DNA from: a virus
Taxonomy: Duplodnaviria > Heunggongvirae > Uroviricota > Caudoviricetes
Length of the DNA: 55,008 bases
Strand: one strand, 5' to 3'
IMG/VR virus record: IMGVR_UViG_2925891887_000003
Shown here: in pieces, positions 1 through 14,908 of the stretch
How the letters are laid out: each line of letters starts with the position of its first letter
Position numbering within the stretch: position 1 is the stretch's first letter
The notes under the pieces: generated by a model
What the model saw: only the letters and a program-made list of their open reading frames with translations
What the model was told of the DNA's origin: nothing
The model's database searches: none
Program-made: the position numbers and the translations under genes

Positions 1-2334
1 CTATTTTGTGATTTCGAGACTGCACTTCGGTAGCCAGTCAGCATTGCATTCTTCTCTAAGTGCCAGATTGGTCTGCATTCCCTGATTGGTCCGCCGCTTC
101 TCGTACTGCAGCCCATACTCTTTCAGCATTAACGGCAACCCCTTGCCAAACATGGTCAGACTGAGCGTGTTTTTATAGCCGTTGGCTTCCATGTAGACCA
201 GATAAGCATGGTAAAGGTATGTACGAGGCTGACGTGGGACAATATTGGCGTTCCCCATAAACATGCCGTTGGTGTCAGGTAATGCCTCAAGGTAGCCACA
301 AAAATCAAATGCTGGATCAGCATCACGCTTGATGGTGAGAGCCTCATCAGAATTCTGCTGCGACTGAAGCAATGTTCTGGCGCTCATCGGATCGCTGAAA
401 CGCTGCATGAGCTGACGAACAATCACAGCCAGTTCTCGTGCAATTTTATCTTTCAGCTGCGGATCGCGTTCTTCCGGTGCTATCTGCTCAGGAAAATGCA
501 GAATAACTCTCCTGCGGGACACACCACCACTGCGATCAGTGAAGCGCATAGGATTATTATTTACGGCCAGGATAACCGCCGGAATATGTGTTGAATAAGC
601 ATTCTGATATTTGGGGTCCACAGATACTGCATCGCCACCAGTTATAGCCTTAAGCCCGGCGCCGTCGCCGCTCCACTTCTCCTGATCAGGCAGGCGAATA
701 AGAGAAAAACCTATCAGAGCCGCACGTTCTCGCGGGGACTCCAGCGTTTCAATGGTCGCAGAGGTGGCGTTATCCTCTCCAGCAAGCATGGTCGCAATTT
801 CAGCCAGAATACTTTTGCCACTTCCACCAGGGCCAGTCACTTCCAGAAAGAGCTGCCAGTCATAGCGGTTCGCCAGCACCATAAATAACGCTGCAAGAAT
901 AATGTCGCGCTTTGCTGGCTTGTGTCCGGCGGCCCGGTCCAGCCAACGCCAGAATGCCGGGGCATGAGTTTCAAGCGTTTCCCCTTTTACCGGTGGCGTG
1001 AAATCGACTTCACACACGGTACGCAGCCAGTTCTCTTTACAGTGCGGACTAAAAAGCCCTGTTCGCGTATCGAGGACGCCATTACGAAAACCAATCAGAT
1101 GACGTGCCGGATTTTGCTGCTGCGGAACAATTAACTTTAATGTTTCCACCAATGAGGCAATTTTTCCTGAGGAAAACGGTGCACCGAGGCGCTGGAAAAG
1201 GGCTGCGACATCTCGGGCAAAATCTGACTGAGAAATCACTTTCCACGCTCCAGACTCGTAGCGGGATAAAAGCTGTCCGTTCGGATCAACCGCCAGTGCA
1301 TCCCTGTAATGCTCCCGAACCCTCTGAGCTTTTTCGCTGACACTCATCGCTGTGAATTCTGCTTCACTCATTGTGTCGAAAGGACTGGCGTTATGTGGCT
1401 TCAAAGCCTCAAGAATTGCCTTCCGGGTGGATTCCTCTCCGTAATGGGCAAGCGCATCATTCCAGTCACCAAAAACCGGTGGCAGCACAATGTCACACTG
1501 ACACGCTTTTGCAGCAGCTTCAGCCCTGTTCTGGCCTGAACCATTCAGATCTCGGTCCGCTGCAATAATTAGCTGATACCCCGGATACTTGTTATGGGCA
1601 ACGCTGGCCAGAGAAAGAAAGTTGACCGACGAAAATGCCACCATGACGGCTTCTCCTGTCAGATGATGAATGGTAAGCGCCGTTGCGTAACCTTCTGCAA
1701 TCCAAACCCTTCTTACAGAACTCCCGCCCCCTTCTATCAGATGATAGGCCTCCTTAACCTGACCTCCTTTAAGAAAACACTTGCTACCATTGCCACTGAT
1801 AAGCTGAATATTCACCAGCTCCCCGTCAGCGTTATAGAGCGGGACGATCAAATCACCGGGGCGGAACATCACCCCACCGGTTTTATGAGCTGAAGTCAGC
1901 TCATGGCAAACATGCTCCGGGAAACCTTTATGTGTAAGATAAGTGTTTCCGGCAGATTCACGCGAGGCTTGCAGCAGTCGCGCGGCAAGTGCTGCCGCTG
2001 CATCTTTCCCGCTATCGGTATCGGCGGTTAACGTCCTGACTTCGGAATTAGCTATAAACAGACCATGTGTCAGTCCATGTATCCTGTCAGCTGCTTCACT
2101 GATATCCACATTCAGTGCCCTGGTGACAAGCGCTAAACCATCCCCGGCTCCGCACTGATTGCAGAACCATGTTCCGCGTCCTTCCTGATCGTCGAAGCGA
2201 AAACGATCTTTACCGCCACAGACCGGACAAGGCTGATGGCGATTTTTCAATATATTCACGCCCAGCGCTGGCAGAATCTGAGCCCAGTGACCGCGGGCAG
2301 CCTTCACGGCCTGACTGACTTTCATTCCTGACAT
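1..2334 (-). CDS. P4 alpha-like bifunctional primase/helicase (satellite replication protein)
   Basis: ORF 1..2385; likely start at internal ATG 2334 (MSGMKVSQ...), giving 777 aa. N-terminal zinc ribbon CPVCGGKDRF...WFCNQCG typical of phage primases; Walker A GPGGSGKS in the C-terminal helicase part. Stop codon at 1-3. Confidence 0.85.
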   Translation of the reverse strand: MSGMKVSQAVKAARGHWAQILPALGVNILKNRHQPCPVCGGKDRFRFDDQEGRGTWFCNQCGAGDGLALVTRALNVDISEAADRIHGLTHGLFIANSEVRTLTADTDSGKDAAAALAARLLQASRESAGNTYLTHKGFPEHVCHELTSAHKTGGVMFRPGDLIVPLYNADGELVNIQLISGNGSKCFLKGGQVKEAYHLIEGGGSSVRRVWIAEGYATALTIHHLTGEAVMVAFSSVNFLSLASVAHNKYPGYQLIIAADRDLNGSGQNRAEAAAKACQCDIVLPPVFGDWNDALAHYGEESTRKAILEALKPHNASPFDTMSEAEFTAMSVSEKAQRVREHYRDALAVDPNGQLLSRYESGAWKVISQSDFARDVAALFQRLGAPFSSGKIASLVETLKLIVPQQQNPARHLIGFRNGVLDTRTGLFSPHCKENWLRTVCEVDFTPPVKGETLETHAPAFWRWLDRAAGHKPAKRDIILAALFMVLANRYDWQLFLEVTGPGGSGKSILAEIATMLAGEDNATSATIETLESPRERAALIGFSLIRLPDQEKWSGDGAGLKAITGGDAVSVDPKYQNAYSTHIPAVILAVNNNPMRFTDRSGGVSRRRVILHFPEQIAPEERDPQLKDKIARELAVIVRQLMQRFSDPMSARTLLQSQQNSDEALTIKRDADPAFDFCGYLEALPDTNGMFMGNANIVPRQPRTYLYHAYLVYMEANGYKNTLSLTMFGKGLPLMLKEYGLQYEKRRTNQGMQTNLALREECNADWLPKCSLEITK

Positions 2335-2348
2335 GATGCAGTTCTCCC

Positions 2349-2672
2349 TCAGTGTAAAACCGGCTTTTTGATGTGACGGACGCATAACTCATCCATTACG
2401 GCTATCCCGAGCTGGGAGAGTGCGGGACAGGACATTAGAGGGCCGGATTCCATCAGGTCTGAAAGCAGGGCGCAGGCGATTTCCATGCCTTTTGTTTGCC
2501 CGTGCTGTCGCAGATAAAATCCTTCAAGCTCACGGGCAATAGCGGTTTCAATTTCATCCAGAGTGAGCTGCAGGTGGCGGTTTTGCTGATAGCAGGCACT
2601 CAACCAGGCGCAGGCTACCGCGCGGCGATACAACGCTACCCGAAGTGAAAGGGAAAGAGTGCGTGATTTCAT
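2349..2672 (-). CDS. hypothetical protein, immediately upstream of alpha in the leftward operon
   Basis: 107-aa ORF, 14 nt upstream of the alpha start, same strand; ATGA overlap with the next ORF upstream. No recognisable motif. Confidence 0.4.
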
Positions 2673-2893
2673 TGCACCACCTCCATGTTCATCAGGTCAT
2701 CCTGGCAACGCTGTACCACGCCATCAAGCTGCTCTGTCATCAGATAAATCAGGGAAACCAGTTGCTCACATTGAGCACTGGCAGGTTTTTCGTAGCAATC
2801 CTGAAGAACAGCCATTCCGGTGACAAACTCCCCCACGTTACGAAGATGCTTCAGGCGGACAATATCGTCATAAGAGATTGCGGCGTGATTCAT
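2669..2893 (-). CDS. hypothetical small protein (position of P4 epsilon-like genes)
   Basis: ORF 2669..2932; internal ATG at 2893 ([11 protein letters not shown]...) preferred. Translationally coupled to the downstream ORF. Function inferred only from position. Confidence 0.3.
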
Positions 2894-3287
2894 CACATCA
2901 CCTCCCGGACAGGCAGGCGAGCAGCAAGGCAAAGCACATATTCATGGACCAGTGAAAGACGTGCATGAGACTCATCGCTGGCGACAATACGCAGCATACT
3001 GATACGTGGTTTACGTTCTGCACGACGAACGGCGGCAAAAACAAATATAAATTGAGGATGTGATGGGGTGAGGATCGTAGCCATAAGGGCAATCTCCAAT
3101 AAGTAGCGGTTATTGCCACCACCAGAGCTGCAAATCTCATGGGTGATGGCCCGGACGGGGTTTGCAGTACCGGCCTTATTGGAAACCGGCCAGCCCGAAG
3201 GCTGCCCCGCCCGGACCACCATTATCTGACAGGAGCCACGGTGTAAGCACCACAGCCCGAAAAATAGGTGTGCCTGAGCAACGACAT

Positions 3288-3309
3288 AAAAAAACACGCT
3301 CGACGCGTG
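3288..3309 (-). terminator. intrinsic terminator downstream of the AlpA/Vis-like gene
   Basis: On the minus strand: 5-bp GC stem (CACGC/GCGTG, loop GTCGA) followed by U7 (plus-strand A-run 3288-3294). Confidence 0.45.
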
Positions 3310-3437
3310 CTGTGTCGCCAATAAGTTACACGGGCTGCAAATCCCGGCTGCCGATTTTGCGGCAGCGGAAAAACTATAACTGGAAAGGTTGCCAGGACGC
3401 AAGCCACAAAAAAAGAGATGAGACTGCAAAGCCAGAT

Positions 3438-3698
3438 TCACGCATGGACTCCTTGCTCGCGGGCTGCAATTCGCGCCGCCATCCATGCACTGACCTCCGA
3501 CTGTACCCAGGCAACATTTTTTCCACCCAGGGAGATCTGCTGCGGGAAGGCATCACGGCTGATAAGGTCGTAGATGGTTGAACGGGATAGCCCGCAAAGG
3601 TGCATCACTTCAGGTAATCGTATGAAGCGCTCCTGCTGAGTCGGAACCGGGAGCACCGGAGCAGCTGGTGCCTGGGTGGAAACGGAAATAGTATGCAT
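3438..3698 (-). CDS. AlpA/Vis-family (MerR-like) phage transcriptional regulator
   Basis: 86 aa; [49 protein letters not shown] matches the AlpA-family pattern (RLP.V....G.SRST.Y......FP....LG...V.W..SEV..W). First gene of the leftward operon, divergent from the late operon. Confidence 0.75.
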
Positions 3699-4232
3699 CT
3701 CGCTACCTCTCTAATATGTTTTCAGTAGTCCGGAGAATTCCATCCGGATTCAGGTAGTTCCTTATTATGTTTATATAAGCGGCTCGCGCATGCTTTATTT
3801 AATTAGAGTGAAATATTGCTTTCTCAAAAAATAAAACAGCTAAAAACCGGATAAAACGGACAAAAACAAATCATTCCTTCATGGAATATAATAAGGAACT
3901 TAAAGAATAAAAAAGTCTATTACACCAGGCAGGATCGCAGCTCAAGCCTGAACCAGACCATATCATTCCGGGCGTTACATCATAAGGACAAAGACGGCAC
4001 CGGAATAATAAAAGGGCCAAAAAACATCCATAAAAAACAGTTCATCATATGTATTAATTAAATTAACGACTAAAAAATTAAATTACCCGCATCCTTCCGC
4101 ATTTATCCGGATGTGTTTAATGAGCATCAGACAGATTCATTTTTATGGATATTTTCTTGAAATGCAACCGAGTGTAGGGAGGTTAAGTTTTGAATTTTCA
4201 AACAGACATAAGACACATTTTATACTGTATAT

Positions 4233-4450
4233 TGAATAGTGTTGAATACGTGTGAATAGTGGTGATGAGTAAAAATCTAGTAATAAACTGAAATAAAGAT
4301 CGCGACTCATATGAAAAACAAATATAAGTTTAAATTTATCTCTGTGAACAGTCATGAACAGTAGATGACCACTTTGATTTAAACACTACACTCCTTAATT
4401 CCATGTATTTACTATTCTTTTATAAAAGTGAACAGTAGTGAATAGTATGT
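4233..4450. repeat. cluster of at least 7 TGAAYAGT-type short repeats (candidate iterons or operator sites)
   Basis: tgaatagtg, tgaatacgtg, tgaatagtgg (4233-4260); gtgaacagtc, atgaacagtag (4345-4365); gtgaacagtag, gtgaatagtat (4429-4450). Confidence 0.5.
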
Positions 4451-4511
4451 ATTAAAGGAAGGGTGAAGATCAGACATGACACCTTTCTCTGGCTAGCCAG
4501 AACAAGGTCAT

Positions 4512-4529
4512 TGTTCAGTCACTGGCACA
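4512..4529 (+). promoter_or_regulatory. TGT-N12-ACA dyad, candidate Ogr/Delta activator site of the late promoter
   Basis: tgt tcagtcactggc aca, ~75-90 bp upstream of the Sid-like start codon; P2/P4 late promoters carry a TGT-N12-ACA element near -55. Confidence 0.4.
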
Positions 4530-4601
4530 ATCCTCATCGGTAGTGCGCTTGTATGGGCACCGGCACAATTGACTCAACAACAAAACACTACCGGAGCAGC
4601 C

Positions 4602-5354
4602 ATGACAACTGTTAACCAGATCCCTGATGTAAACATTACACCTTCCCTCCCGCCGAAAATTCGCGAAGCGGTAGAAAAAGTTAAAGCAGCAAAAGCTGTC
4701 TGGCAGGAAGAACGGCGAAAACAAACTGAAGCCGCTGCAATGACTGAAACTATCCGTAAACGTCAGGAAGATACAAAAACGGAGACGCAGGCGCTTAATG
4801 ATGAATGGCGAAACCTGTTTCGTGAGAATCAGGGGAATATGACGCCACGAATGAAAAAACTGCGGGCAGAAATCGCCCTCGGACGCGAAACACTGGATGA
4901 GTTCGAAGATTTGCTGGCAGCTCAGGCCGCAGAAAATGAATTCCTGCCATGGAAAACTGCGGATGCTGCAAACCGCTACATCAGCGAACATAATCGCCTG
5001 ATTGAAACTCATGCAGTGTGGCTCTGGAATGAGTTTATGAAGGAACACGGCCAGAAACTTATTCAGATCCTTGGACTGCTGAAAATGACTCTGGGCCGAA
5101 GCGCATCTTCTGTTATCGGTGTAGTTCATACCGTAAACGACCCCGAAAGTGTGCTGAAGCAATTTATCAGCGAGCAACTCACCACTCCGGCACTGTCCTG
5201 TAACGTATCTTCAACGGATGATATTGCCCTGCCGGGGATCAGCATTTATGCGGACGATAAAGCCATACAGGATGCCAGACAATCACCCAGCCCTGCAGCG
5301 CGTTCCCGGATGCTTAAACAGCGTGACATGGTTAAAGGGGGCGAGAAGGAATGA
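4602..5354 (+). CDS. P4 late-operon protein, possibly Sid-like capsid size determination protein
   Basis: ORF 4569..5354 (TTG); ATG at 4602 with GGAG upstream preferred (250 aa). Predicted helical and charged; first gene of the operon ending in Psu-like and Ogr/Delta genes. Sid assignment is positional only. Confidence 0.4.
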   Translation: MTTVNQIPDVNITPSLPPKIREAVEKVKAAKAVWQEERRKQTEAAAMTETIRKRQEDTKTETQALNDEWRNLFRENQGNMTPRMKKLRAEIALGRETLDEFEDLLAAQAAENEFLPWKTADAANRYISEHNRLIETHAVWLWNEFMKEHGQKLIQILGLLKMTLGRSASSVIGVVHTVNDPESVLKQFISEQLTTPALSCNVSSTDDIALPGISIYADDKAIQDARQSPSPAARSRMLKQRDMVKGGEKE

Positions 5355-5905
5355 ATACCGGAACCATTACTAAGGAAGCTCTCAACGATTACCGCGCGGC
5401 GATAAAAAGCTGGCTGACACTACGTAATGTGCAAAGTACCAGCCAGCTTCGTCTGGCGGCTTTGCTGGATACTGAAGAAAAACCCGCAGCATATGCCAGC
5501 CAACTTGAGGATCTTCGTGAGCATCTTGTACTCCTCGAATGGCAGATTAACTGTGCCGCCCGGGATGGTCTTTATGCTCACCAGATTGTGCTGGAAAGCT
5601 GTGTTACAAGCGCAACTGAAAACTTCATGAGCGAGCATGGTGATGCACTCACTGACGCTCTGGCTCCTTTTCTTTGCGCACCATACGGGCTTGAGGCGGC
5701 AATGAAAATATTACGAACCGCTGTAGCCCGACAAACGGAAGTCCGTACTCCGGTAATTTCAGCAGCATATAAGAGCATTATCGACGAAACCGGATTAACG
5801 GTGGATGCATCAATGCGCGCTGATGCTTCAGCCAGTTTCACCCCGGCACAACATAAAGTTTTCCTGGCCCGCCTTAACCGACTTAATGAAAAAGGAGTGT
5901 GCTGA
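5351..5905 (+). CDS. Psu-like (polarity suppression / capsid decoration) protein
   Basis: 184 aa; ATGA overlap with the upstream gene. Segments ALTDALAPFL and SFTPAQHKVF resemble what I recall of P4 Psu. Moderate confidence. Confidence 0.55.
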   Translation: MNTGTITKEALNDYRAAIKSWLTLRNVQSTSQLRLAALLDTEEKPAAYASQLEDLREHLVLLEWQINCAARDGLYAHQIVLESCVTSATENFMSEHGDALTDALAPFLCAPYGLEAAMKILRTAVARQTEVRTPVISAAYKSIIDETGLTVDASMRADASASFTPAQHKVFLARLNRLNEKGVC

Positions 5906-5906
5906 T

Positions 5907-6179
5907 ATGGCCCTGAAGTGTCCTGAATGTGGCGCGGTCGCTCACGCTAGAACCAGCGCCTATGAAGCTCCGTCGGTTAAACGCTCATGGTATCAGTGCC
6001 AGAGTCTGGAATGTTCCTGCACATTTACCGCACTGGAAAGCGTGGATACGATAATTATGAAGCCTCGGCGCAATGAACAGGCATCAGACAAAGCAAAAAT
6101 GCCGGAAAAACAACAGCAAACTCTCAATCGCTATGGCTCCGCGTCAAAGCTGTCAAACCGTCAGCAAATTCCTGTCTGA
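5907..6179 (+). CDS. Ogr/Delta-family zinc-finger late transcription activator
   Basis: MALKCPECGAVAHARTSAYEAPSVKRSWYQCQSLECSCTFTALESV matches the Ogr/Delta C-x2-C...C-x4-C finger pattern; AAAGGAG RBS 9 nt upstream of the ATG. Confidence 0.85.
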   Translation: MALKCPECGAVAHARTSAYEAPSVKRSWYQCQSLECSCTFTALESVDTIIMKPRRNEQASDKAKMPEKQQQTLNRYGSASKLSNRQQIPV

Positions 6180-6270
6180 TTAGCAAAATACGCCCACGAA
6201 GTCTCGGTCCAGTACCGGGATTTTTTACGCTTTTTCCCTGGCTGGCCTGAGAGCGTATGAGTGCATATCT

Positions 6271-6309
6271 ATGGCGCATGAAAACGCATGAGTCTCATGC
6301 GCCATTTTT
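6271..6309 (+). terminator. intrinsic terminator of the late operon
   Basis: Perfect 11-bp inverted repeat atggcgcatga / tcatgcgccat followed by TTTTT. Confidence 0.6.
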
Positions 6310-6383
6310 GACGCGAAAGCCCTTGTGTGGTGGCTTCTGAGACGATTTAAGGGGTGCATGAAAACCAGTCTGTTAAGCGAAGC

Positions 6384-6407
6384 GGGCAGGCGGGCGGGGC
6401 TGCGCAC
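6384..6407. other. candidate cos (cohesive end) site of the P4-like element
   Basis: GC-rich gggcaggcgggcggggctgcgcac resembles my recollection of the P2/P4 cohesive end (GGCGAGGCGGGGAAAGCAC); sits where cos is expected, between the late operon and the cargo/int region. Not verified by alignment. Confidence 0.3.
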
Positions 6408-6451
6408 GCTGAGGGGAAGTATTGAGATCGGTGAGGGGAAATCTGATTCAT

Positions 6452-6473
6452 TAAAAAGGCCGCTTTCGCGGCC
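6452..6473 (-). terminator. intrinsic terminator ending the reverse-transcriptase operon
   Basis: Minus strand: GGCCGC-GAAA-GCGGCC hairpin followed by UUUUU, ~120 nt downstream of the RT-B stop. Confidence 0.6.
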
Positions 6474-6590
6474 TGTTTAGCTAAAAGGCAATAGTGTGTC
6501 TAAATCGGTCCATCCTCAAAACGTATCGCGAATATCTTTCGGATGAACATTCAAAAGCCGATCTTCCGGTATCTGCTTCAGGTCGAAACC

Positions 6591-8630
6591 TTAGGCATCG
6601 CAACCCTTTAACGAAATTAAAATACTACTATTCATATGCTGTTCGCAACTCTTTTTTATAAAGAACGTGCTCAAGATCAGCATCTCCAGACCAGTTAAAA
6701 AGATTACATTATTTTTTAAAGAATCAATTTCAGAATCAATTACTGCATTCGTAAATCTTTTTTGACCTGTATTTGCTTCGACATATGTTCTATAAATTAT
6801 TCTCTTATGCTTAACTGTAAGATATGGGCACGTCATCATATCAAGGAATAGCATAAATGTTTCAGTGTCTTTTTTTATATCGTTCCGACCACTTATCAAA
6901 CTCTGTATAGCAAGGACAATATCTTCTTTCATTTTTAGATAGAGAACATCATCGCCTATATAGTGTAACATGCTGCATATAGAAAAATATTCTAAATCGT
7001 AAAAACACTCATTCTCACTAATACCCAACAAATCCTTAAATTCATCTGGATTGAGTTTATACTGCTCCCCCAAACCTTTCATACATATAAGTAAGTTAGA
7101 TAACTCCACTGGCCTCTCATGAATATTACCCATGCTTTTCATGCACATAAGAAGCTCATCAAAAGTATTCTTTTTTATAACTTCACTAATGTCTGAAGCT
7201 TGCTTATTAGCAAATGAATTTATTTCCAAAATAACTTGGCTAATTATGTATGTCTGTCGGACTCGAAAATCCATAGCATAAATAAAAAAAATCACCTCAT
7301 TGAATATTGAGAAGAATTTATAAGTTATATCTTCTTTTCCTGACAGATCGAACATCCTCAACAGCCTAATTACTTTGAAAAACTTACTCTTAATCGCACT
7401 TATTAAGTATGAGCTAACAAGATCAAATGTGGTATTGTTTTTTCTAACCGCAATTTTGATTCGTTTTATAAATTTGTCCGCGTGTAGCTTTTTATTCCAT
7501 ACACCTTTCAATGGAAAAAGGTTATTCATATTTTCAGGCTGAATTTTGACGTCTGGATTTAAATTAACCATAGCTGTTAACTCATCCAACTTCTCAGTAT
7601 GGATTAACGATCCATATAAATCCTCAATGATTTCTGCAATATCATTTTTAGCCATCGTGGCTCCAGTCACGAATGGCCTCTCGATAAATTCCTTTTTAGA
7701 TTCATTCAAATAAAGCTTATATTTTTCGAGTTCATTTGCCAGTACAAATTCTATTAGCTTAAATGTTTCATCATCATCCGCAAATATAAAATAATCATCA
7801 ACGTAACGTCTTATAGCATAGCTCTTATCTTTAACTATGCCTGGCTCAAGATTCAAATGAGACTCAACATTCAAGTCAACGCGCTGTAATATAATCTCCG
7901 CAAATATCCTTGAAAATTCAGGCCCAATTATTATGCCATTTGTTTCACCATAATTGGCATCTTGAAAAAGCTTATCCAAACAACCTTCAAAGCTGTTATA
8001 AGTTCTATTAACCTTAGAGAATTCTTTAGATTTTACAGCCCATGAAACGCTGTGTGTATATATATGACTAAAACACTTAGCAATATCAAGCTTTAAAAGT
8101 TTCCTAAACTTCCTTTCCAATCTATGAAATTCATATGACTCATAAAACTTATAGATGAAAGGATATTTCTTATATGAAAAATGGGAAGATGAGGAAGTTT
8201 CTTGGGAATCAAAGCCATGATTATGAAATTGTACAAGACCATCTTTTAGATTTATTCTACTTTTTAAGAAGTCCTTTTCGTAATAATAGCTCCCTATTTT
8301 GCTAGGATAACGTAGCGAAAACGGACTTTTTGTACACATATGAACCATCAAATGTTCATACTTATCATAAAAATCACAGATTCTTAACTGCGTTGAAGGA
8401 TGTATAATGCCAAGGCTTCGAGAACTCGCCAGCCCCTTTTTTATTTTATAGGAGTAAGGGATGGTATAAGAATCCAGCTTAAGGCCTTCTGAAAATGTTC
8501 CGGGTAAAACTTTATTTTCAGAAATTAACTTATAGAAACCTTCGTTAGAAAAAAGGATAGGGACTTCATATGGTAAAATATCCGTGAGAAGTACTCTTTT
8601 ATAATCACTCTTCGATATTTTAATTTTCAT
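6591..8630 (-). CDS. reverse transcriptase, large (RT-B; UG/Abi-class defence-type RT with ~390-aa C-terminal extension)
   Basis: 679 aa, ~30% GC. RT motifs: LKLDIAKCFSHIYTHSV (motif A with Asp), NGIIIGPEFSRIFAEIILQRVD (motif B), RRYVDDYFIFADD (motif C, YVDD). GGTGA RBS; start 3 nt after the RT-A stop. Confidence 0.85.
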   Translation of the reverse strand: MKIKISKSDYKRVLLTDILPYEVPILFSNEGFYKLISENKVLPGTFSEGLKLDSYTIPYSYKIKKGLASSRSLGIIHPSTQLRICDFYDKYEHLMVHMCTKSPFSLRYPSKIGSYYYEKDFLKSRINLKDGLVQFHNHGFDSQETSSSSHFSYKKYPFIYKFYESYEFHRLERKFRKLLKLDIAKCFSHIYTHSVSWAVKSKEFSKVNRTYNSFEGCLDKLFQDANYGETNGIIIGPEFSRIFAEIILQRVDLNVESHLNLEPGIVKDKSYAIRRYVDDYFIFADDDETFKLIEFVLANELEKYKLYLNESKKEFIERPFVTGATMAKNDIAEIIEDLYGSLIHTEKLDELTAMVNLNPDVKIQPENMNNLFPLKGVWNKKLHADKFIKRIKIAVRKNNTTFDLVSSYLISAIKSKFFKVIRLLRMFDLSGKEDITYKFFSIFNEVIFFIYAMDFRVRQTYIISQVILEINSFANKQASDISEVIKKNTFDELLMCMKSMGNIHERPVELSNLLICMKGLGEQYKLNPDEFKDLLGISENECFYDLEYFSICSMLHYIGDDVLYLKMKEDIVLAIQSLISGRNDIKKDTETFMLFLDMMTCPYLTVKHKRIIYRTYVEANTGQKRFTNAVIDSEIDSLKNNVIFLTGLEMLILSTFFIKKSCEQHMNSSILISLKGCDA

Positions 8631-8633
8631 GAA

Positions 8634-9830
8634 TCACCAAACCTTATTTATTTTAATAATATCTTCCCGTTTAAAAGAAGACAGTAGCCGTTTTTCAAAA
8701 CCAGCCAAAAATGAGTATTTTTTAGGCGCAGTTAATAAGTTGTGACCTGCTGCTAAAATTTTTCTCCCCACCTCGCCCTTTGAAGAAAATAGCATCCTAT
8801 TCTTAAATATATCAAGTTCCTTGAGCTGTGTTTTATCAGTTATATGTTGATAATTGTAATAAATTCCACTATATAAAGCATCAGTTTTATTACTATTGGA
8901 GTTTACTAATATATTACCAGTTAAATACTTTATTCTTTTCTTCAAGAGTTCTGCATCAGAATTATTTGAGTAATCTTTTACCGCAAGTGCAATCCTTCTT
9001 TTTATTTTCTTTATTTTCTCCTCCGAAATTCTGATCACAACATGACGACGCTGATTTTTTAATCCATGGTGTATAATAAATGAATATCCCAAAAACTCAA
9101 TTTCAGAATGTTTAGTTGAAGTGTCCTCTATGGTATACTCACTGCACTTTCTTTCATTTAAATGTAATCCATTTGGTAAAATCCTTGAAAAATAATTTTT
9201 ATAATCTGGTATTTTATAGAATGAAAAAACTATGATATCATCCACATATCTTGAAGCATAAAAAACTTCAGGCAGCCTCGCCAACTCAGCATCAAATTCC
9301 TCCATAAATATTTCTGATAAAGTCGCACTTAATCCCATACCACGGGGAAGTCCGTTATTTGCAGAGAAAGCGTTATGTTTAAAAAGACCATTGATAAATT
9401 TTTTAGTATTATGAGAAATAATCGGGTTATTATTAATTCTTTGGAAAACGATATTTTTATCTATTGATTCATAAAAACTCTTAATATCCAGCCTGTAAAT
9501 ATAATAATTTACAGGCTCACTTAACACTGTATTTACTTTTTTTATGATGTCATGTCTGTTGTTTTGTTTAACACTATACACACGCTTAATGTTATCATTT
9601 ATTTTCCTGGCGACAAGTACATCCATAAAATCTTTAAATATATACACATTTTTGTTGTTAATTCTTGAATTTGAGATCGAACCAAATGAGTATGTTTCAA
9701 TTGAGCCATTAACTTTATCAGCTATATATTTTTTATATTCAGCTGAATTCCTACCAATTTTGTATCTTTTTGGATCGGTTTTTTTTAAAAGCTTAATTAA
9801 GTTCGAAACGGAAAATGACTGGTTTAACAT
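8634..9830 (-). CDS. reverse transcriptase, small (RT-A; UG/Abi-class defence-type RT)
   Basis: ORF track starts at GTG 9863 (overlapping int); ATG at 9830 with AAGGGG RBS preferred (398 aa). Motifs: YRLDIKSFYESID (A), GLPRGMGLSATLSEIFMEEFD (B), YASRYVDDIIVFS (C, YVDD). AT-rich. Confidence 0.85.
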   Translation of the reverse strand: MLNQSFSVSNLIKLLKKTDPKRYKIGRNSAEYKKYIADKVNGSIETYSFGSISNSRINNKNVYIFKDFMDVLVARKINDNIKRVYSVKQNNRHDIIKKVNTVLSEPVNYYIYRLDIKSFYESIDKNIVFQRINNNPIISHNTKKFINGLFKHNAFSANNGLPRGMGLSATLSEIFMEEFDAELARLPEVFYASRYVDDIIVFSFYKIPDYKNYFSRILPNGLHLNERKCSEYTIEDTSTKHSEIEFLGYSFIIHHGLKNQRRHVVIRISEEKIKKIKRRIALAVKDYSNNSDAELLKKRIKYLTGNILVNSNSNKTDALYSGIYYNYQHITDKTQLKELDIFKNRMLFSSKGEVGRKILAAGHNLLTAPKKYSFLAGFEKRLLSSFKREDIIKINKVW

Positions 9831-9831
9831 A

Positions 9832-11010
9832 TTATAACCCCTTTTTTTTGCGAAGATAATCACTGTACCATTGCATCATCTTCTGCCTTTCCATAAGGTA
9901 TATGGCATGATTATAAGTTCCTCTTATATTATTTCTATCAACATGAGCTAATTGGACTTCAATAAATGCTGATTGAAAACCTTCTTCATGCAAAATTGTT
10001 GATAACATATGTCTGAACCCGTGACCAGTGAGTCGGCCTTCGTAACCGATACGCTTGATAACTTGATTTATGCTAGCTTCGCTCATCGGTTTGTTCGGAT
10101 CGTTCCGTCCTGGAAAAACATAACGATAGTTCCCTGTCATTATCTTGAGTTCATGGAGTAAATCTAACGCTTGGGTCGACAATGGCACAAGATGCGGCCT
10201 GCGCATTTTCATCCTTTCAGCAGGAATTTCCCAAATAGCGTTATCCAGATCAAATTCTTGCCATAATGCCGCGCGTAATTCGATGGTTCTCACGCCCGTA
10301 ATCATCAGTAATTTCGTTGCTATCTGGACAAGCTTACTCCCGGTGTAACTCTCTAAGGCACGCAGAAATTCGGGTATCTCATCAGCTTTTAGGAACGGGA
10401 AATGATTGGATTGGTGCACTTCGAGAGCGCTGGAAAGATCTGCCGCAGGATTGTACTCCGCTCTACCCGTTGCAATTGCGTAGCGAAACACTTCAGAGCA
10501 ACGCTGACGCACTTTCCGCATTTTCTCCAACGCACCACGTTTCTCAATTTTACGCAGTACGTTCAGCAGCTCTAGCGGTTTAATCTCACTCACAGGCCTT
10601 GTTCCAACATAAGGAAAAATGTCGTTCTTAAACGCTTCCATGATGTCTGATGCATATCCTGCCGACCATTTAGCAGATTTAAGTTGATGCCACTCTCTGG
10701 CTATCTTTTCGAAGGCGTTCTCTGACTCTGCTTGCAGAGCCAGCTTTTGCTCTTTTCGAACATCACTAGGGTTCTTTCCTTCTGCCACAAGTTTTCGAGC
10801 TTCATCACGACGGGAACGAGCATCGGCAAGAGTGATCGTTGGGTAAACGCCAAGCGAGATCATCTTGGGTTTACCGGCATAGCGATAGCGGAACCGCCAG
10901 CTCTTGCTTCCATTAGGTTCTATAAGCAATGACAAGCCTTGCCCATCCCCAAGCGTATAGGGTTTATCTTCAGGCTTAGCGCGGCGAATCTGCATATCGT
11001 TTAAAGGCAT
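9832..11010 (-). CDS. int: P4-type tyrosine integrase
   Basis: 392 aa; N-terminus MPLNDMQIRRAKPEDKPYTLGDGQGLSL... typical of P4-family integrases; C-terminal HGFRHM...RGTYNHAIY catalytic region. Adjacent to the duplicated thrW 3' segment. Confidence 0.9.
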   Translation of the reverse strand: MPLNDMQIRRAKPEDKPYTLGDGQGLSLLIEPNGSKSWRFRYRYAGKPKMISLGVYPTITLADARSRRDEARKLVAEGKNPSDVRKEQKLALQAESENAFEKIAREWHQLKSAKWSAGYASDIMEAFKNDIFPYVGTRPVSEIKPLELLNVLRKIEKRGALEKMRKVRQRCSEVFRYAIATGRAEYNPAADLSSALEVHQSNHFPFLKADEIPEFLRALESYTGSKLVQIATKLLMITGVRTIELRAALWQEFDLDNAIWEIPAERMKMRRPHLVPLSTQALDLLHELKIMTGNYRYVFPGRNDPNKPMSEASINQVIKRIGYEGRLTGHGFRHMLSTILHEEGFQSAFIEVQLAHVDRNNIRGTYNHAIYLMERQKMMQWYSDYLRKKKGL

Positions 11011-11011
11011 G

Positions 11012-11061
11012 TGTATAGGAATCCATGACCGAACAGGAACATATACACAATCCTATACACA
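11012..11061. promoter_or_regulatory. 10-bp perfect inverted repeat just upstream of the int start codon (candidate operator or Int binding site)
   Basis: gtgtatagga ... tcctatacac separated by 30 bp. Confidence 0.3.
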
Positions 11062-11172
11062 TTCTTTATCGGATTCTACTGGATGGCTGCGGACGATGAT
11101 GGACTAAAAAACGGTAAAATCGTTATAAATCAGGGTATTTATGGATGAATACGGACATTTGGGGAAGTTGAG

Positions 11173-11219
11173 ATGGTGCCGATAATAGGAGTCGAACCTA
11201 CGACCTTCGCATTACGAAT
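11173..11219. repeat. att site: 47-bp duplicate of the thrW 3' end, junction between the two tandem elements
   Basis: atggtgccgataataggagtcgaacctacgaccttcgcattacgaat is identical to 53564-53610, which overlaps the 3' end of the intact tRNA. Confidence 0.85.
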
Positions 11220-11295
11220 TATAAGAATCCACTTCTAATTCAAAGCATTACCCCATCAACACTGCGCTCACACGTCCCACCACATCAAAACATGT

Positions 11296-11353
11296 AAAGC
11301 CTTGCAAGCCATTGCGAGGCCTTATGTGTCTCAGTTTTGTCCCACCTTGTATT
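11296..11353 (+). repeat. ~58-bp direct repeat, copy A (near the prophage end)
   Basis: aaagccttgcaagccattgcgaggccttatgtgtctcagttttgtcccac...; near-identical copy at 20129-20186; contains an internal hairpin GCCTTGC / GCGAGGC. Confidence 0.7.
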
Positions 11354-11568
11354 ACGACTTGCATAGCCAATGAAGATAAACGTGACGACAAACGGCGCAG
11401 CAGTCTTCTTTTCCTTCATACTTTCCCCACCCAGCATGCATACCTTTATGCCATAACTGAAGTTTATGTCTGTTATGAGCGAATTGCAGACATTAACGTT
11501 TGGTTAAGGGACGGGCTGTAGCCCGTCCCAGTGAGCGAAGCTTAATTTAGTCCGTGTGCAGCGCTTTG

Positions 11569-12999
11569 TTAGCCAAAACTGATGTGATTTTTAGTTAGAT
11601 CTCTATATCTCTTATCGTTGTGTACTTTATGGAGGATCGTTTGGTTGGCGATCAAAAAATCTATAATTTCTTGAATTCTTTCGCTACGAGCATTGGCTCT
11701 TAACAAAGTCAAAACGCTTACCATATGTTGCTGGCAGTATTTGTTGTCTAAATTCACTCGCACTTCATTAGAGTGCATTGCTATAACTGTATTGATAATG
11801 TTTTGATCGCCAAGCATGCCAAAAAACTGATCATACAAAGGTCGTCCCGCCGGAGAAACACCAGTATTATATGGTATTCCTTTACCAACACGACAAATCA
11901 AAACTGTTTTTATAAGCTTATGAACCCTCTCTAAAGGTATGTCATTTTCAGTCTTTAAATACGAAAGAATCTTCCGCATATGAGGGGGTTCATTATAAAA
12001 GTTATCCCAAGCATACCTAGCCTCTAAGAGATCGTCGGCATGGCCGTCCAGTGATATAATTCTAGAGTCTAATGATTGATAACGATTACCATCACAAAAC
12101 GTAAAAAACTCAATACCTAAAGCATGTTTCTCGTTGTGAAGATTGTTCTTGTATCCGTCTAGCGTCACGCCGAGCTTGTATTTTACGTTATCACTGCTTT
12201 TATTCCAGATATGCGGAGCAAAAAGAGCGATATTTTTTCTGACAACATTTCCTGTTGAATCAGCTGTATATATGCCGAAAATACTATTGAGTAGATTGTC
12301 AGTATTCTGAAGCGACAGATCATTCAAAGGTCTTTCCATGCTATGAATTGTGGCTTCATCAAGAACATCAGTGGATCTTTTTAGATTCTCAAGGAATGAT
12401 TTTATTTGTATGGCAGACGCGGACGGTTTGTCGTTCAAAATATCTTGAACGCATGTTTGGAGCCAGCCAAGAAGTTCAAAAGCATTTATGGAGTATGAAT
12501 TTGGGTGCGAAGCACCAATGTCATTCCTCATAGTCAATATATGATTGAGCTTGGTGTAAACAACGTCAGATATTAATTCAAGTTTTCGGCAAGTATTAAT
12601 AAGGGTGTTGTCTTTTAAACCAGAAAGATCTTCTTCGGTAGAATAAAGCTCTCTACGTCCTCCTCCAACTGCAGCATCAAAGAACATATCGAGGCCATAA
12701 ACTACTACTTTTTCCCTTAAATTCAGTACAACTTCATTCCAAACATAATTTAACGATGCATCAAATAGTCCTATAGCCGCACCAGCAACGAACTTTGATA
12801 AATATCGAGCATCTCTTTTTACCTCAGCAGGTAAAGAATCTATGAATGTGGGGAGGTTTTTTTCAATAATTTGGCGCTCAGGGAGAGAGGCAATTATATT
12901 TTCGGTCGGCAAACCAAGATAGGATAAATATCCTTCAAATTTTGTTGTATCTGTGGAAAGTACCCCTGTTCCAGGTTTTGCAATCAATTCTGAACTCAT
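11569..12999 (-). CDS. hypothetical 476-aa protein, AT-rich moron at the prophage end
   Basis: Long AT-rich ORF with ATG start; no motif I recognise. Strong 10-bp GC hairpin (11509-11531) downstream. Confidence 0.7.
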   Translation of the reverse strand: MSSELIAKPGTGVLSTDTTKFEGYLSYLGLPTENIIASLPERQIIEKNLPTFIDSLPAEVKRDARYLSKFVAGAAIGLFDASLNYVWNEVVLNLREKVVVYGLDMFFDAAVGGGRRELYSTEEDLSGLKDNTLINTCRKLELISDVVYTKLNHILTMRNDIGASHPNSYSINAFELLGWLQTCVQDILNDKPSASAIQIKSFLENLKRSTDVLDEATIHSMERPLNDLSLQNTDNLLNSIFGIYTADSTGNVVRKNIALFAPHIWNKSSDNVKYKLGVTLDGYKNNLHNEKHALGIEFFTFCDGNRYQSLDSRIISLDGHADDLLEARYAWDNFYNEPPHMRKILSYLKTENDIPLERVHKLIKTVLICRVGKGIPYNTGVSPAGRPLYDQFFGMLGDQNIINTVIAMHSNEVRVNLDNKYCQQHMVSVLTLLRANARSERIQEIIDFLIANQTILHKVHNDKRYRDLTKNHISFG

Positions 13000-13615
13000 A
13001 CGATTATTTCCTTATCTGGTTGAAGGCTAGAGAACAGCTAACGCTTTTAGCAGGGGCGCGACGTTAGGAGCGTCCCATACCTAAACTTGTTAAGGTATTT
13101 GTGAGCAAACGCCACCAGTATTTGGGTTTAGATCCAATACATACTTCATGCGAGTACAACCTATCCCGAATCAAGCAGGAGTCATTTCTCCCGCACTTAG
13201 GGTTTGGACATTTCATGTTCCCTACCCATGGTGAATTCGATTCGTAATGTACGATCTTCATAAAGCCTTAACAATTTAATAGAAGGCTTTTTTGCCCGCA
13301 AGTGGAACATTTTTCTGCCTTCTTTCCTGATCTTTACTCACATCAAACTAACGCTGATATACCTCTATTTCAACAGGTTTTTCTGAAATCAATAAATTTG
13401 CGTCCGGCAAACTTTATACAGCCAGTACGCGAGTTGTTCTTGATTTACTTAAGCTGGACACATGGGAATTATCCAGCGGCTTGTGCTAGTAAAAGAAGAA
13501 ATTATCAGGCATTTACCACAACGCCCAATGCCCGCTTTTGGCACAAAGCAGACGCCCACTCTCACGCGAATGCTTTGCCCTTGACTTGCCAACAACCGTA
13601 TCGCTTGCTCCGCAA

Positions 13616-14908
13616 CTATGGTTTTTTATTAGAATCTTCGCCACTAAATAAATTATAATAAATTGATTTTATTAGATATCTGTCAGAATCTATATGGTCA
13701 GCACGAGTAGCATGCTCTAATGTTTCAAATGCTAGGGTTTGTGCGGCTTCAGCAAAAATTCCAGGCCAACCCTTACTCAGCATCGACAGTCCTTTAAGGA
13801 CCCTTATCTGAATTTCCCTCATACTGGCACCATCGCGCGCAACAGGTGAGAAAAAGTCTTCAAGTAGATCGTTATTCTGAAGTGGTGCAACATGTACAGA
13901 AGGATATTTCACTTCTATTTCATCAGATTTATTCTGCGCGTAAGCGGAAAGTATACGTACACCTCTGCCAATGACATCAATGGCGGTTCCAGGATCGTTC
14001 ACTGCGGGGGAAAGGGCTCGGCAGGCTATTTCGGCCATGACGCTAAGACAAAATCGGGGGTCCTGAGCAAATGAACGTACATCCGAGACAATAATCGTCT
14101 CAAGTAAATCGGTGCTGATTGATGACTCCTGGCCCTGACTCAGGTACAAAACTGGCGTGGACGGATGTATGAAACTGCCCGGCTGCGCCACGAGGTATAC
14201 ATGACGGGGATCATTGGTCAGCAGCTTACTGAGTTTCACCATATCAACATATTCAACATAGCCAATCTTTTTCGGATAAACTGCAACCGTTCCTTTCGGC
14301 TGTTCATTGTTCTCAAGCCATGGATATCCGCCGAGACAGGGATTTCTTGCTCTCGCAATAAATGTTTCGATGGCCGCCTGTTCTACTTTTGCCGTTGTCT
14401 CACCAACCCTCCCCAGAGAGGTCAAATGCTGTATCCAGCGAAGCAATGTGATGAGGATTAAGGCAATGACAACCAGTGTTACAATGAATAAAATGACTCT
14501 CCCCCTTTCTCCATAAGCTCCCATATTGAGGGCAATAATCCCTACCAGACTGAAGAGAAAAGAACCGATGAAGGTGGCCAGTACATTTTGTGTGGTGACG
14601 TCTTCAACAACTAAACGAGTAGCTCTGGGAGTCACATTAGTAGTGGCTGAACCGTAGGCTGTGACCATGATGCTCAGCGAAAATGTGGTCACTGCCAGCA
14701 TACTCGATGCCAGTATGTTCAGAATGTTATCGACTGCTTCCGCACCAACCTTCACGGAAACCGACTCAGGTATCATTGATTTAAAAAGAATTGATAAAAG
14801 GGCCGTTATTATTGCGACAATTGCGAATAACGTTGCCCTGAACCATAGTTTTTTAAATGTCTGCTTCAGCATCCATTTCCAGCGTGAAATCATTCTGCAT
14901 TCCCTCAT
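13616..14908 (-). CDS. membrane protein with N-terminal TM helices (DUF2254-like)
   Basis: 430 aa; four hydrophobic segments in the first ~160 aa, then a soluble domain. Family name from recollection only. Confidence 0.55.
   Translation of the reverse strand: MRECRMISRWKWMLKQTFKKLWFRATLFAIVAIITALLSILFKSMIPESVSVKVGAEAVDNILNILASSMLAVTTFSLSIMVTAYGSATTNVTPRATRLVVEDVTTQNVLATFIGSFLFSLVGIIALNMGAYGERGRVILFIVTLVVIALILITLLRWIQHLTSLGRVGETTAKVEQAAIETFIARARNPCLGGYPWLENNEQPKGTVAVYPKKIGYVEYVDMVKLSKLLTNDPRHVYLVAQPGSFIHPSTPVLYLSQGQESSISTDLLETIIVSDVRSFAQDPRFCLSVMAEIACRALSPAVNDPGTAIDVIGRGVRILSAYAQNKSDEIEVKYPSVHVAPLQNNDLLEDFFSPVARDGASMREIQIRVLKGLSMLSKGWPGIFAEAAQTLAFETLEHATRADHIDSDRYLIKSIYYNLFSGEDSNKKP

Follow-up and report, generated by a model that had tools for sequence, protein, structure and literature searches.

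A cluster of short direct repeats between the vis/alpA-like and sid-like genes of a P4-like satellite, a prophage at the thrW site of Escherichia coli, is very probably the replication origin of that satellite (oriI type), and its repeats would accordingly be type 1 iterons of the kind found in phage P4. The cluster is homologous to the P4 origin in sequence, position and layout, the arrangement is conserved across the family of P4-like elements, and the satellite carries an intact cognate alpha gene. The predicted iteron family has the consensus (G/A)GTGAA(C/T/G)AGT. The P4 origin has been known as a cis element since the 1980s, and the cluster is a previously unannotated homologue of it, real but ordinary.

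Repeats and genes of the probable origin interval

We analysed a stretch of 55,008 nucleotides (the window), which is a piece of E. coli chromosome identical over its first 6.7 kb to strain 22AR0322. The first 11 kb of the window are a P4-like satellite prophage at the tRNA-Thr gene thrW. On the minus strand the satellite encodes alpha, a DUF5375/cnr-like gene, an Icd-like gene and vis/alpA, followed by an intergenic region of 903 nt; sid, psu, delta, a DRT3 defence pair and the integrase gene then follow, in this order, on the plus strand. All satellite genes inspected are intact (alpha, with 777 aa, vis, sid, psu, delta and int). The vis/alpA-like gene belongs to phrog_2790 (excisionase and regulator) and aligns with P4 ORF88. 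The parts of the interval and its neighbouring genes are listed here, with the evidence in brackets; scores are those of the iteron weight matrix described below.

1–2334, minus strand: alpha primase-helicase, the presumed iteron-binding initiator (identity to P4 alpha, 1KA8, Pfam)
3438–3698, minus strand: vis/alpA-like helix-turn-helix gene, left boundary (PF05930 Phage_AlpA, E = 4.1e-20)
4231–4270, plus strand: group 1, four head-to-tail 10-bp units ATTGAATAGT, GTTGAATACG, TGTGAATAGT and GGTGATGAGT (Tandem Repeats Finder, matrix scores)
4272–4342, no strand: AT-rich spacer 1, a candidate DNA-unwinding region (composition; poorly conserved in 70 origins)
4343–4352, plus strand: iteron 1, TGTGAACAGT, equivalent to P4 type 1 repeat 9310–9317 (alignments; score 12.6; P4 annotation)
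4353–4362, plus strand: iteron 2, CATGAACAGT, equivalent to P4 9320–9327, with A at position 2, a near-invariant G elsewhere (score 6.4)
4364–4373, plus strand: iteron 3, decayed, GATGACCACT, equivalent to P4 9331–9338, GGTGAACAGT (score 1.8)
4374–4426, no strand: AT-rich spacer 2, with conserved CTGTATTA...TTTTTT and a near-match inverted motif at 4411–4418 (alignment, composition)
4385–4392, minus strand: position of the inverted iteron (P4 9353–9360), lost, reading ACTACACT where the family consensus is TGTTCACC (alignments)
4427–4436, plus strand: iteron 4, AGTGAACAGT, equivalent to P4 9396–9403 (score 17.1; alignments)
4437–4446, plus strand: iteron 5, AGTGAATAGT, equivalent to P4 9406–9413, a T variant that is the family majority here (score 15.1)
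4481–4508, no strand: imperfect palindrome CCTTTCTCTGGCT/AGCCAGAACAAGG, past the iterons and ahead of the sid promoter (70–88% column conservation in 70 origins)
4512–4567, plus strand: two TGT-N12-ACA boxes, 4512–4529 and 4550–4567, with starts 38 nt apart
4602–5354, plus strand: sid-like capsid-size gene, right boundary (phrog_6165, E = 1.6e-91; annotation)

Six exact copies of TGAAYAGT lie between 4233 and 4446, all on the plus strand (starts 4233, 4253, 4345, 4355, 4429 and 4439). They form three groups with start-to-start distances of 92 and 84 nt and a 10-bp phasing within groups; Tandem Repeats Finder reported period-10 arrays at 4232–4265 (3.4 copies) and 4427–4447 (2.1 copies). Copies with two mismatches were found at 4243 (TGAATACG), 4263 (TGATGAGT) and 4366 (TGACCACT), and an inverted copy with one mismatch at 4411–4418 (ACTATTCT). 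The spacers at 4272–4342 and 4374–4426 have a GC content of 22.5% and 22.6%, respectively, against 48.4% for the window. Nine related E. coli genomes were inspected, and none has a PGAP gene in the repeat interval; the three small open reading frames there have no Pfam or PHROG family match. The initial annotation had described at least seven copies in three groups within AT-rich, non-coding DNA; seven is too many for exact copies and is reached once degenerate ones are included, and the remainder of the description holds. Across the whole window, on both strands, TGAAYAGT occurs 12 times, compared with 2.85 ± 1.79 expected by shuffling, and none of 100 shuffles reached 12. The six matches outside the origin (6627, 25413, 31004, 38880, 48289 and 54372) are all on the minus strand, a bias that is probably due to chance.

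Within the intergenic region the cluster takes up the third nearest to sid, and it ends 65 nt before the TGT-N12-ACA boxes. The 38-nt spacing of these boxes is the same as that of the two boxes before P4 sid (9493 and 9531), and by analogy with P2 and P4 late promoters we take them to be the sites at which Delta/Ogr acts on the sid promoter, and they are outside the repeat family. Within the cluster itself, a Delta/Ogr site was considered and rejected: the sole TGT-N12-ACA dyad, at 4343, is a chance product of adjacent iterons and is absent from P4 and from one related locus (L005). No leftward late-promoter box of this form was found in window 3699–4342, whereas P4 carries such a box at 9133. 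The vis-proximal part of the region contains two long-range inverted repeats (3756–3771/3885–3900 and 4021–4036/4140–4155), each with 16-nt arms that are 94% complementary and 103–113 nt apart, and a period-9 array of ATAAAACGG with 3.7 copies at 3831–3865. Rfam searches of the intergenic region returned no RNA family at E <= 1, and a promoter and terminator scan of 3650–4650 gave results at chance level.

Comparison with the phage P4 origin and its relatives

The P4 genome record (NC_001609) has a rep_origin annotated at 9086–9809, between ORF88 (vis) and sid, and six 'ori type 1 repeats', of which five (9310, 9320, 9331, 9396 and 9406) are on the minus strand and one (9353) is on the plus strand. 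When read along the sid strand, these repeats are GGTGAACAGT, GGTGAACAGA and others, and TGAAYAGT is the P4 iteron seen from the other strand with an offset of 2 nt. Window and P4 aligned collinearly from the triple iteron to the sid start codon with 55% identity, and the local alignment score was 45, compared with 17.6 ± 2.4 (maximum 29) in 500 shuffles. In this alignment 4343–4352, 4353–4362 and 4364–4373 correspond to the P4 triple, 4385–4392 to the inverted repeat, and 4427–4436 and 4437–4446 to the pair. The motif had been likened in the initial annotation to the complement of the TGTTCACC octamer iterons of P4 ori and crr, and the cluster had been proposed as a possible replication origin. 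Comparison with the P4 iterons bears out the likeness, since the P4 sid strand reads GGTGAACAGT and the copies align one for one, matching the P4 repeats in position and order. It also favours the proposal of an origin, as the annotated P4 origin and its type 1 repeats occupy the same vis–sid interval.

The two regions share further properties. Both lie in the vis/ORF88–sid interval upstream of two Delta boxes, both have the repeat GGTGAACAGT on the sid strand (that is, TGTTCACC), and both show the order of three direct, one inverted and two direct copies, with 10–11 bp phasing and AT-rich spacers; each is accompanied by a cognate alpha (73% identical) with the same C-terminal DNA-binding domain. 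The features of a P4-type origin are thus found here as a non-coding interval between vis/alpA and sid (from gene order and family assignments), phased copies of TGTTCACC/GGTGAACA in which four of six iterons are recognisable (scores 12.6, 6.4, 17.1 and 15.1), AT-rich DNA between the groups, and an alpha encoded in cis that has the C-terminal domain. The differences are that iteron 3 and the inverted copy are decayed in the window, that several window copies start with TG, CA or AT where P4 has GG, and that the intergenic region is 903 nt long instead of 552 nt. In addition, the P4 'type 2' repeats (three copies of CCACTTAAAG) are absent from the window, whereas the iteron-like array of group 1 is extra in the window and has no P4 counterpart. 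A blastn search ('distant') of window 3600–4700 against 50,697 phage records found no match, so that homology to P4 rests on alignment, profile and synteny. The origin sequence has diverged a great deal from that of P4, with the repeats and the layout kept.

To place the cluster among its relatives, we retrieved 80 loci from other genera with the alpha protein as query, including loci of Enterobacter, Klebsiella, Citrobacter, Kluyvera, Pantoea, Erwinia, Pectobacterium, Serratia, Yersinia and Rahnella. The origin layout is shared by nine other loci from E. coli and P4. In about half of the 80 loci the commonest 7-mer per 260-nt stretch was a variant of the iteron (TGTTCAC, CTGTTCA or ACTGTTC), located either 1.9–2.8 kb upstream of alpha or some 70–100 nt (up to about 350 nt) past the alpha stop codon. 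A 275-nt origin profile matched 61 of the 80 upstream of alpha at E < 1e-20. Past alpha it gave weaker matches on the opposite strand, often two of them about 170 nt apart, which are crr; in the window's own intergenic region it also matched the palindrome at 4481–4508 on the opposite strand.

When 70 distinct origins from many Enterobacterales genera were aligned, iteron columns were about 90–99% conserved and flanks 30–60%, with the GTGAA core at about 99%. Every locus in this alignment has five direct iterons, and all except the window and two close relatives (L003 and L004) have the inverted iteron at a fixed position, at which the window reads ACACTACACTCC and the family ACTGTTCACCC. Absence of the repeats from related elements had been named beforehand as an outcome that would count against an origin; they are present in all 70 related origins. 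A weight matrix built from 300 iterons of 62 loci outside the window's lineage reads (G/A)GTGAA(C/G/T)A(G)T, and 7 of its matches of at least 6 bits fall in 4225–4455, compared with 55 in the whole window on both strands.

Recognition of the P4 origin layout across the family by a simple profile has its main use in annotation: P4-like satellites are present in a large share of Enterobacterales genomes and their origins are unannotated. A census of P4-like satellites (PMC8628076) makes no mention of ori, crr, origin of replication, iteron or intergenic. The profile could serve for marking origins, for judging how likely a prophage is to replicate and for designing satellite-based vectors.

Some loci depart from the common iteron. 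In Pantoea, Erwinia and Rosenbergiella loci (L048, L050–L055, L061, L063, L065, L067 and L079) the iteron has GAT or AAT in place of AGT in its 3' half (GGTGAAGGAT), and the alpha C-terminus is also distinct and common to the group, as with PLSMKMFGLSLESI in Pantoea. The iteron 3' half and the alpha C-terminus may co-vary here, a relation confounded by phylogeny. A GCGGTGA cluster within the alpha gene of Pectobacterium and Serratia loci was considered as an internal origin and rejected, as it consists of codons for conserved AV(I/M), GGD and SGD; it is absent from the window.

Origins with helically phased direct repeats read by the element's own initiator are also known from iteron-type theta plasmids and from SaPI/PICI elements. 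R6K, pSC101, P1 oriR and RK2, together with SaPI/PICI origins, share with the satellite the phased direct repeats, the AT-rich DNA and the element-encoded initiator. They differ in the initiator, which here is one protein fusing a primase, an SF3 helicase and a winged helix, and in the plasmids is a Rep- or pi-type protein that recruits DnaB and DnaG. Another difference is the presence in P4-like elements of two separated cis sites, ori and crr. On reading the interval by eye we found no DnaA box; repeats of LexA boxes or DnaA boxes were rejected as an identity for the cluster, in which inspection showed no CTGT-N8-ACAG and no TTATCCACA.

Alpha, the crr-like unit and a proposed mechanism

Over 769 aa, the alpha of the window shares 73% identity with P4 alpha; its Pfam domains are Zn_Ribbon_Prim, Toprim_3, D5_N and Pox_D5. 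Residues 671–770 match PDB 1KA8, the solved C-terminal winged-helix domain of P4 alpha, with E = 2.4e-46. By homology with P4, the satellite's alpha, encoded 2 kb leftward of the cluster, would bind the iterons through this domain. Because the iterons are one helical turn apart, successive copies lie on the same face of the DNA. Alpha would bind the same motif at a second cis site, crr, beyond the alpha gene; as a hexameric SF3 helicase it would then open the spacers of about 22% GC between the iteron groups, and its primase domain would prime DNA synthesis, leaving host polymerase to copy the excised circle. We infer alpha binding, spacer unwinding and a need for crr in the satellite by analogy with P4. 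Ziegelin and colleagues reportedly addressed recognition of the origin by P4 alpha in 1993.

For P4 itself, alpha binding and the requirement for crr are taken from the GenBank annotation, from citations in PMC2777425 and PMC8965321 and partly from general knowledge. The P4 crr annotation in NC_001609, just beyond alpha, has the same type 1 repeat ten times. Left of alpha and beyond the window, AR_0019 (100% identical to window 3600–4700) and 22AR0322 (identical over the first 6.7 kb, as above) have a crr-like unit consisting of TACTATTCACC, 55 nt and AGTGAAGAGTGAACAGC. The unit is located at NZ_CP195467 3822820–3822960. Related elements have this same unit immediately past the alpha terminator, and one of the P4 crr repeats is similar to it. 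The origin profile did not detect this unit at E <= 10.

The crr-like unit is probably a reduced crr, to judge from comparison with P4 crr (NC_001609 4291–4590). In both, the same iteron is found past the end of alpha and near the attachment-site end of the element, and the lineage's unit has ...cacTGTTCAC... and ...GTGAAGAGTGAACA... in common with one P4 crr repeat. P4 has two 120-bp repeats with five iterons each, whereas this lineage has a single unit with about three iterons, outside the window. A further difference is in spacing: here a 365-aa open reading frame separates alpha from the crr-like unit, whereas in related elements crr directly follows alpha. This frame, a hypothetical gene with its own terminator between the alpha stop codon and the unit (L001 7211–8308, equal to L091 2784–3881), is just left of window position 1 beside a remnant of the old alpha terminator.

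Lineage-specific features and alternative readings

As replication biology the origin contains nothing unexpected, and the points of note are an extra array specific to this lineage and hypervariable arrays at neighbouring positions elsewhere. Together with L003–L008 and the Scandinavium locus L058, the window forms a sub-family whose intergenic region is long (903–933 nt, compared with about 550 nt in P4). Identity of the alpha C-terminus to that of the window is 89–100% within the sub-family and at most 83% in other loci. The extra 350 nt or so of the long region are poorly conserved between sub-lineages except for islands such as GAAATGCAAC at about 4160. Group 1 is present only in the window, L003–L008 and L058, and consists of three or four 10-bp units TGAATA(G/C)TGG located 72 nt from the triple. 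With a matrix that excludes this lineage, its units in the window score 8.1, below 6, 10.6 and 10.4. Because group 1 resembles the type 1 iteron, alpha may read it as well, a suggestion drawn from sequence resemblance only.

Arrays with a period of 10 are common at this place in other elements. About 40 of 71 P4-like loci (among L011–L090 and L002, for example L002 9176–9205) have one in the 230 nt that flank the triple iteron towards vis, typically ending some 70–100 nt from it. Their units are unrelated between elements (CCACTTAAAG, TGGCAAACGT, TATTGGCCAT, ATTTGCCTTT, TGCCTACAGT and others). We considered whether Vis or the alpha C-terminus tracks the class of array and rejected this, because elements paired across array classes can be 97.7% identical in Vis and 100% identical in the alpha C-terminus. 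Extra copies of the P4 type 2 unit near attP, which might link it to Vis, were searched for across P4, and counts did not exceed chance.

Group 1 alone (4231–4270) could, with a modest though appreciable probability, be one of these variable 'type 2'-like arrays, read by a factor other than alpha. Its distance of 72 nt from the triple falls within the usual range of such arrays, which more than half of the loci possess. Against this, three of its four units score 8–10.6 bits as type 1 iterons and the arrays elsewhere are dissimilar to it. Group 1 also lies on the opposite side of a box shared with P4, GAAATGCAA, from the P4 type 2 repeats, and so probably occupies a different slot; an identity with the P4 type 2 repeats themselves was rejected on the same position and on the resemblance to type 1.

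The sub-family's iterons deviate from those of other loci. Iteron 2 (CATGAACAGT) has A where 96% of other iterons have G, and two units of group 1 likewise have no G at position 2. Summed over the five direct iterons, scores in the sub-family are 50–57; the window's score of 52.7 compares with 74.0 ± 11.3 in 52 other loci and is the fourth lowest of 70. The decay of iteron 3 (GATGACCACT) together with loss of the inverted copy is confined to the window, L003 and L004. These observations can be put together as a remodelled origin, with a weakened triple, an inverted iteron lost in the window's sub-lineage, a new array of T variants (TGAATAGT) and a distinct alpha C-terminus, and we offer this only as a tentative and rather doubtful proposal. 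If true, it would represent either compensating change or a shift in alpha–iteron specificity that bars co-resident P4-like satellites from sharing an initiator.

The same decay could instead mean that the cluster, although homologous to the P4 origin, has ceased to function and is a relic in a cryptic prophage. Loss of iteron 3 and of the inverted copy, a core score among the lowest of 70, and a crr that is both reduced and displaced are all consistent with this, and the prophage may indeed be cryptic. We nevertheless consider a relic improbable, given that the satellite genes inspected, from alpha to int, are intact and that the lineage is common: 248 of 5,426 complete E. coli genomes cover at least 80% of 4150–4620. 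Moreover, the deviant copies (CATGAACAGT and group 1) have been kept across sub-lineages whose spacers have strongly diverged, which points to selection.

Less probable still is the other suggestion of the initial annotation, that the cluster is not an origin and serves as an array of operators, for Vis/AlpA or an immunity factor, at divergent sid and vis promoters. The cluster does lie in the control region, at 65–280 nt from the downstream Delta boxes of sid, group 1 overlaps a weak promoter-like site that faces left (4245–4217), and P4 Vis has been reported to act on both late promoters. However, the motif is the annotated P4 origin repeat and recurs in crr past alpha, where there is no promoter to regulate. 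Its core is near-invariant in the 70 loci, whereas Vis proteins from these loci are anywhere from 38 to 100% identical to that of the window, and the promoter-like sites in the interval number 3, compared with 3.2 expected by chance. The operator suggestion is accordingly not supported. A double role, in which binding by alpha also affects transcription, may exist.

A chance pile-up of an AT-rich word, or a small coding gene, can be dismissed: the region is AT-rich and an ATG-initiated open reading frame of 70 aa (4143–4355, minus strand) overlaps group 1, but none of 100 shuffles reached the observed count, repeat positions are kept in 70 loci, and the frame has no family match or annotation in the genomes inspected and is broken by a 10-bp copy-number difference, one unit of group 1 differing between L003 and L004 so that any reading frame there is shifted.

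Beyond the probable origin, several other features of the prophage were observed. The only Rfam matches, on the minus strand and left of the intergenic region, were the C4 antisense RNA at 3139–3226 (86 bits), isrK at 3289–3366 (73 bits) and the c4-a1b1 target at 3327–3379 (50 bits), all within the span of the Icd-like coding sequence; this cluster is the P4 cI-type RNA immunity module. Allowing up to 3 mismatches, the P4 cos sequence GGCGAGGCGGGGAAAGCAC is absent from the window; the only look-alike, within 6170–6600, was the GC-rich GGCAGGCGGGCGGGGCTGCGCAC at about 6387. A DRT3a/DRT3b reverse-transcriptase defence pair (6591–9863) occupies the cargo hotspot of the satellite, and a single-base difference between the window and 22AR0322 is present at about 6701, in a run of A close to the drt3b 3' end. 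At the far end of the satellite, only the 3' part of tRNA-Thr is present, at 11175–11220, and ARAGORN found no tRNA in window 1–14000. Other DNA follows the fragment, with phage baseplate and tail genes further right, and a second island or prophage therefore lies in tandem at thrW.
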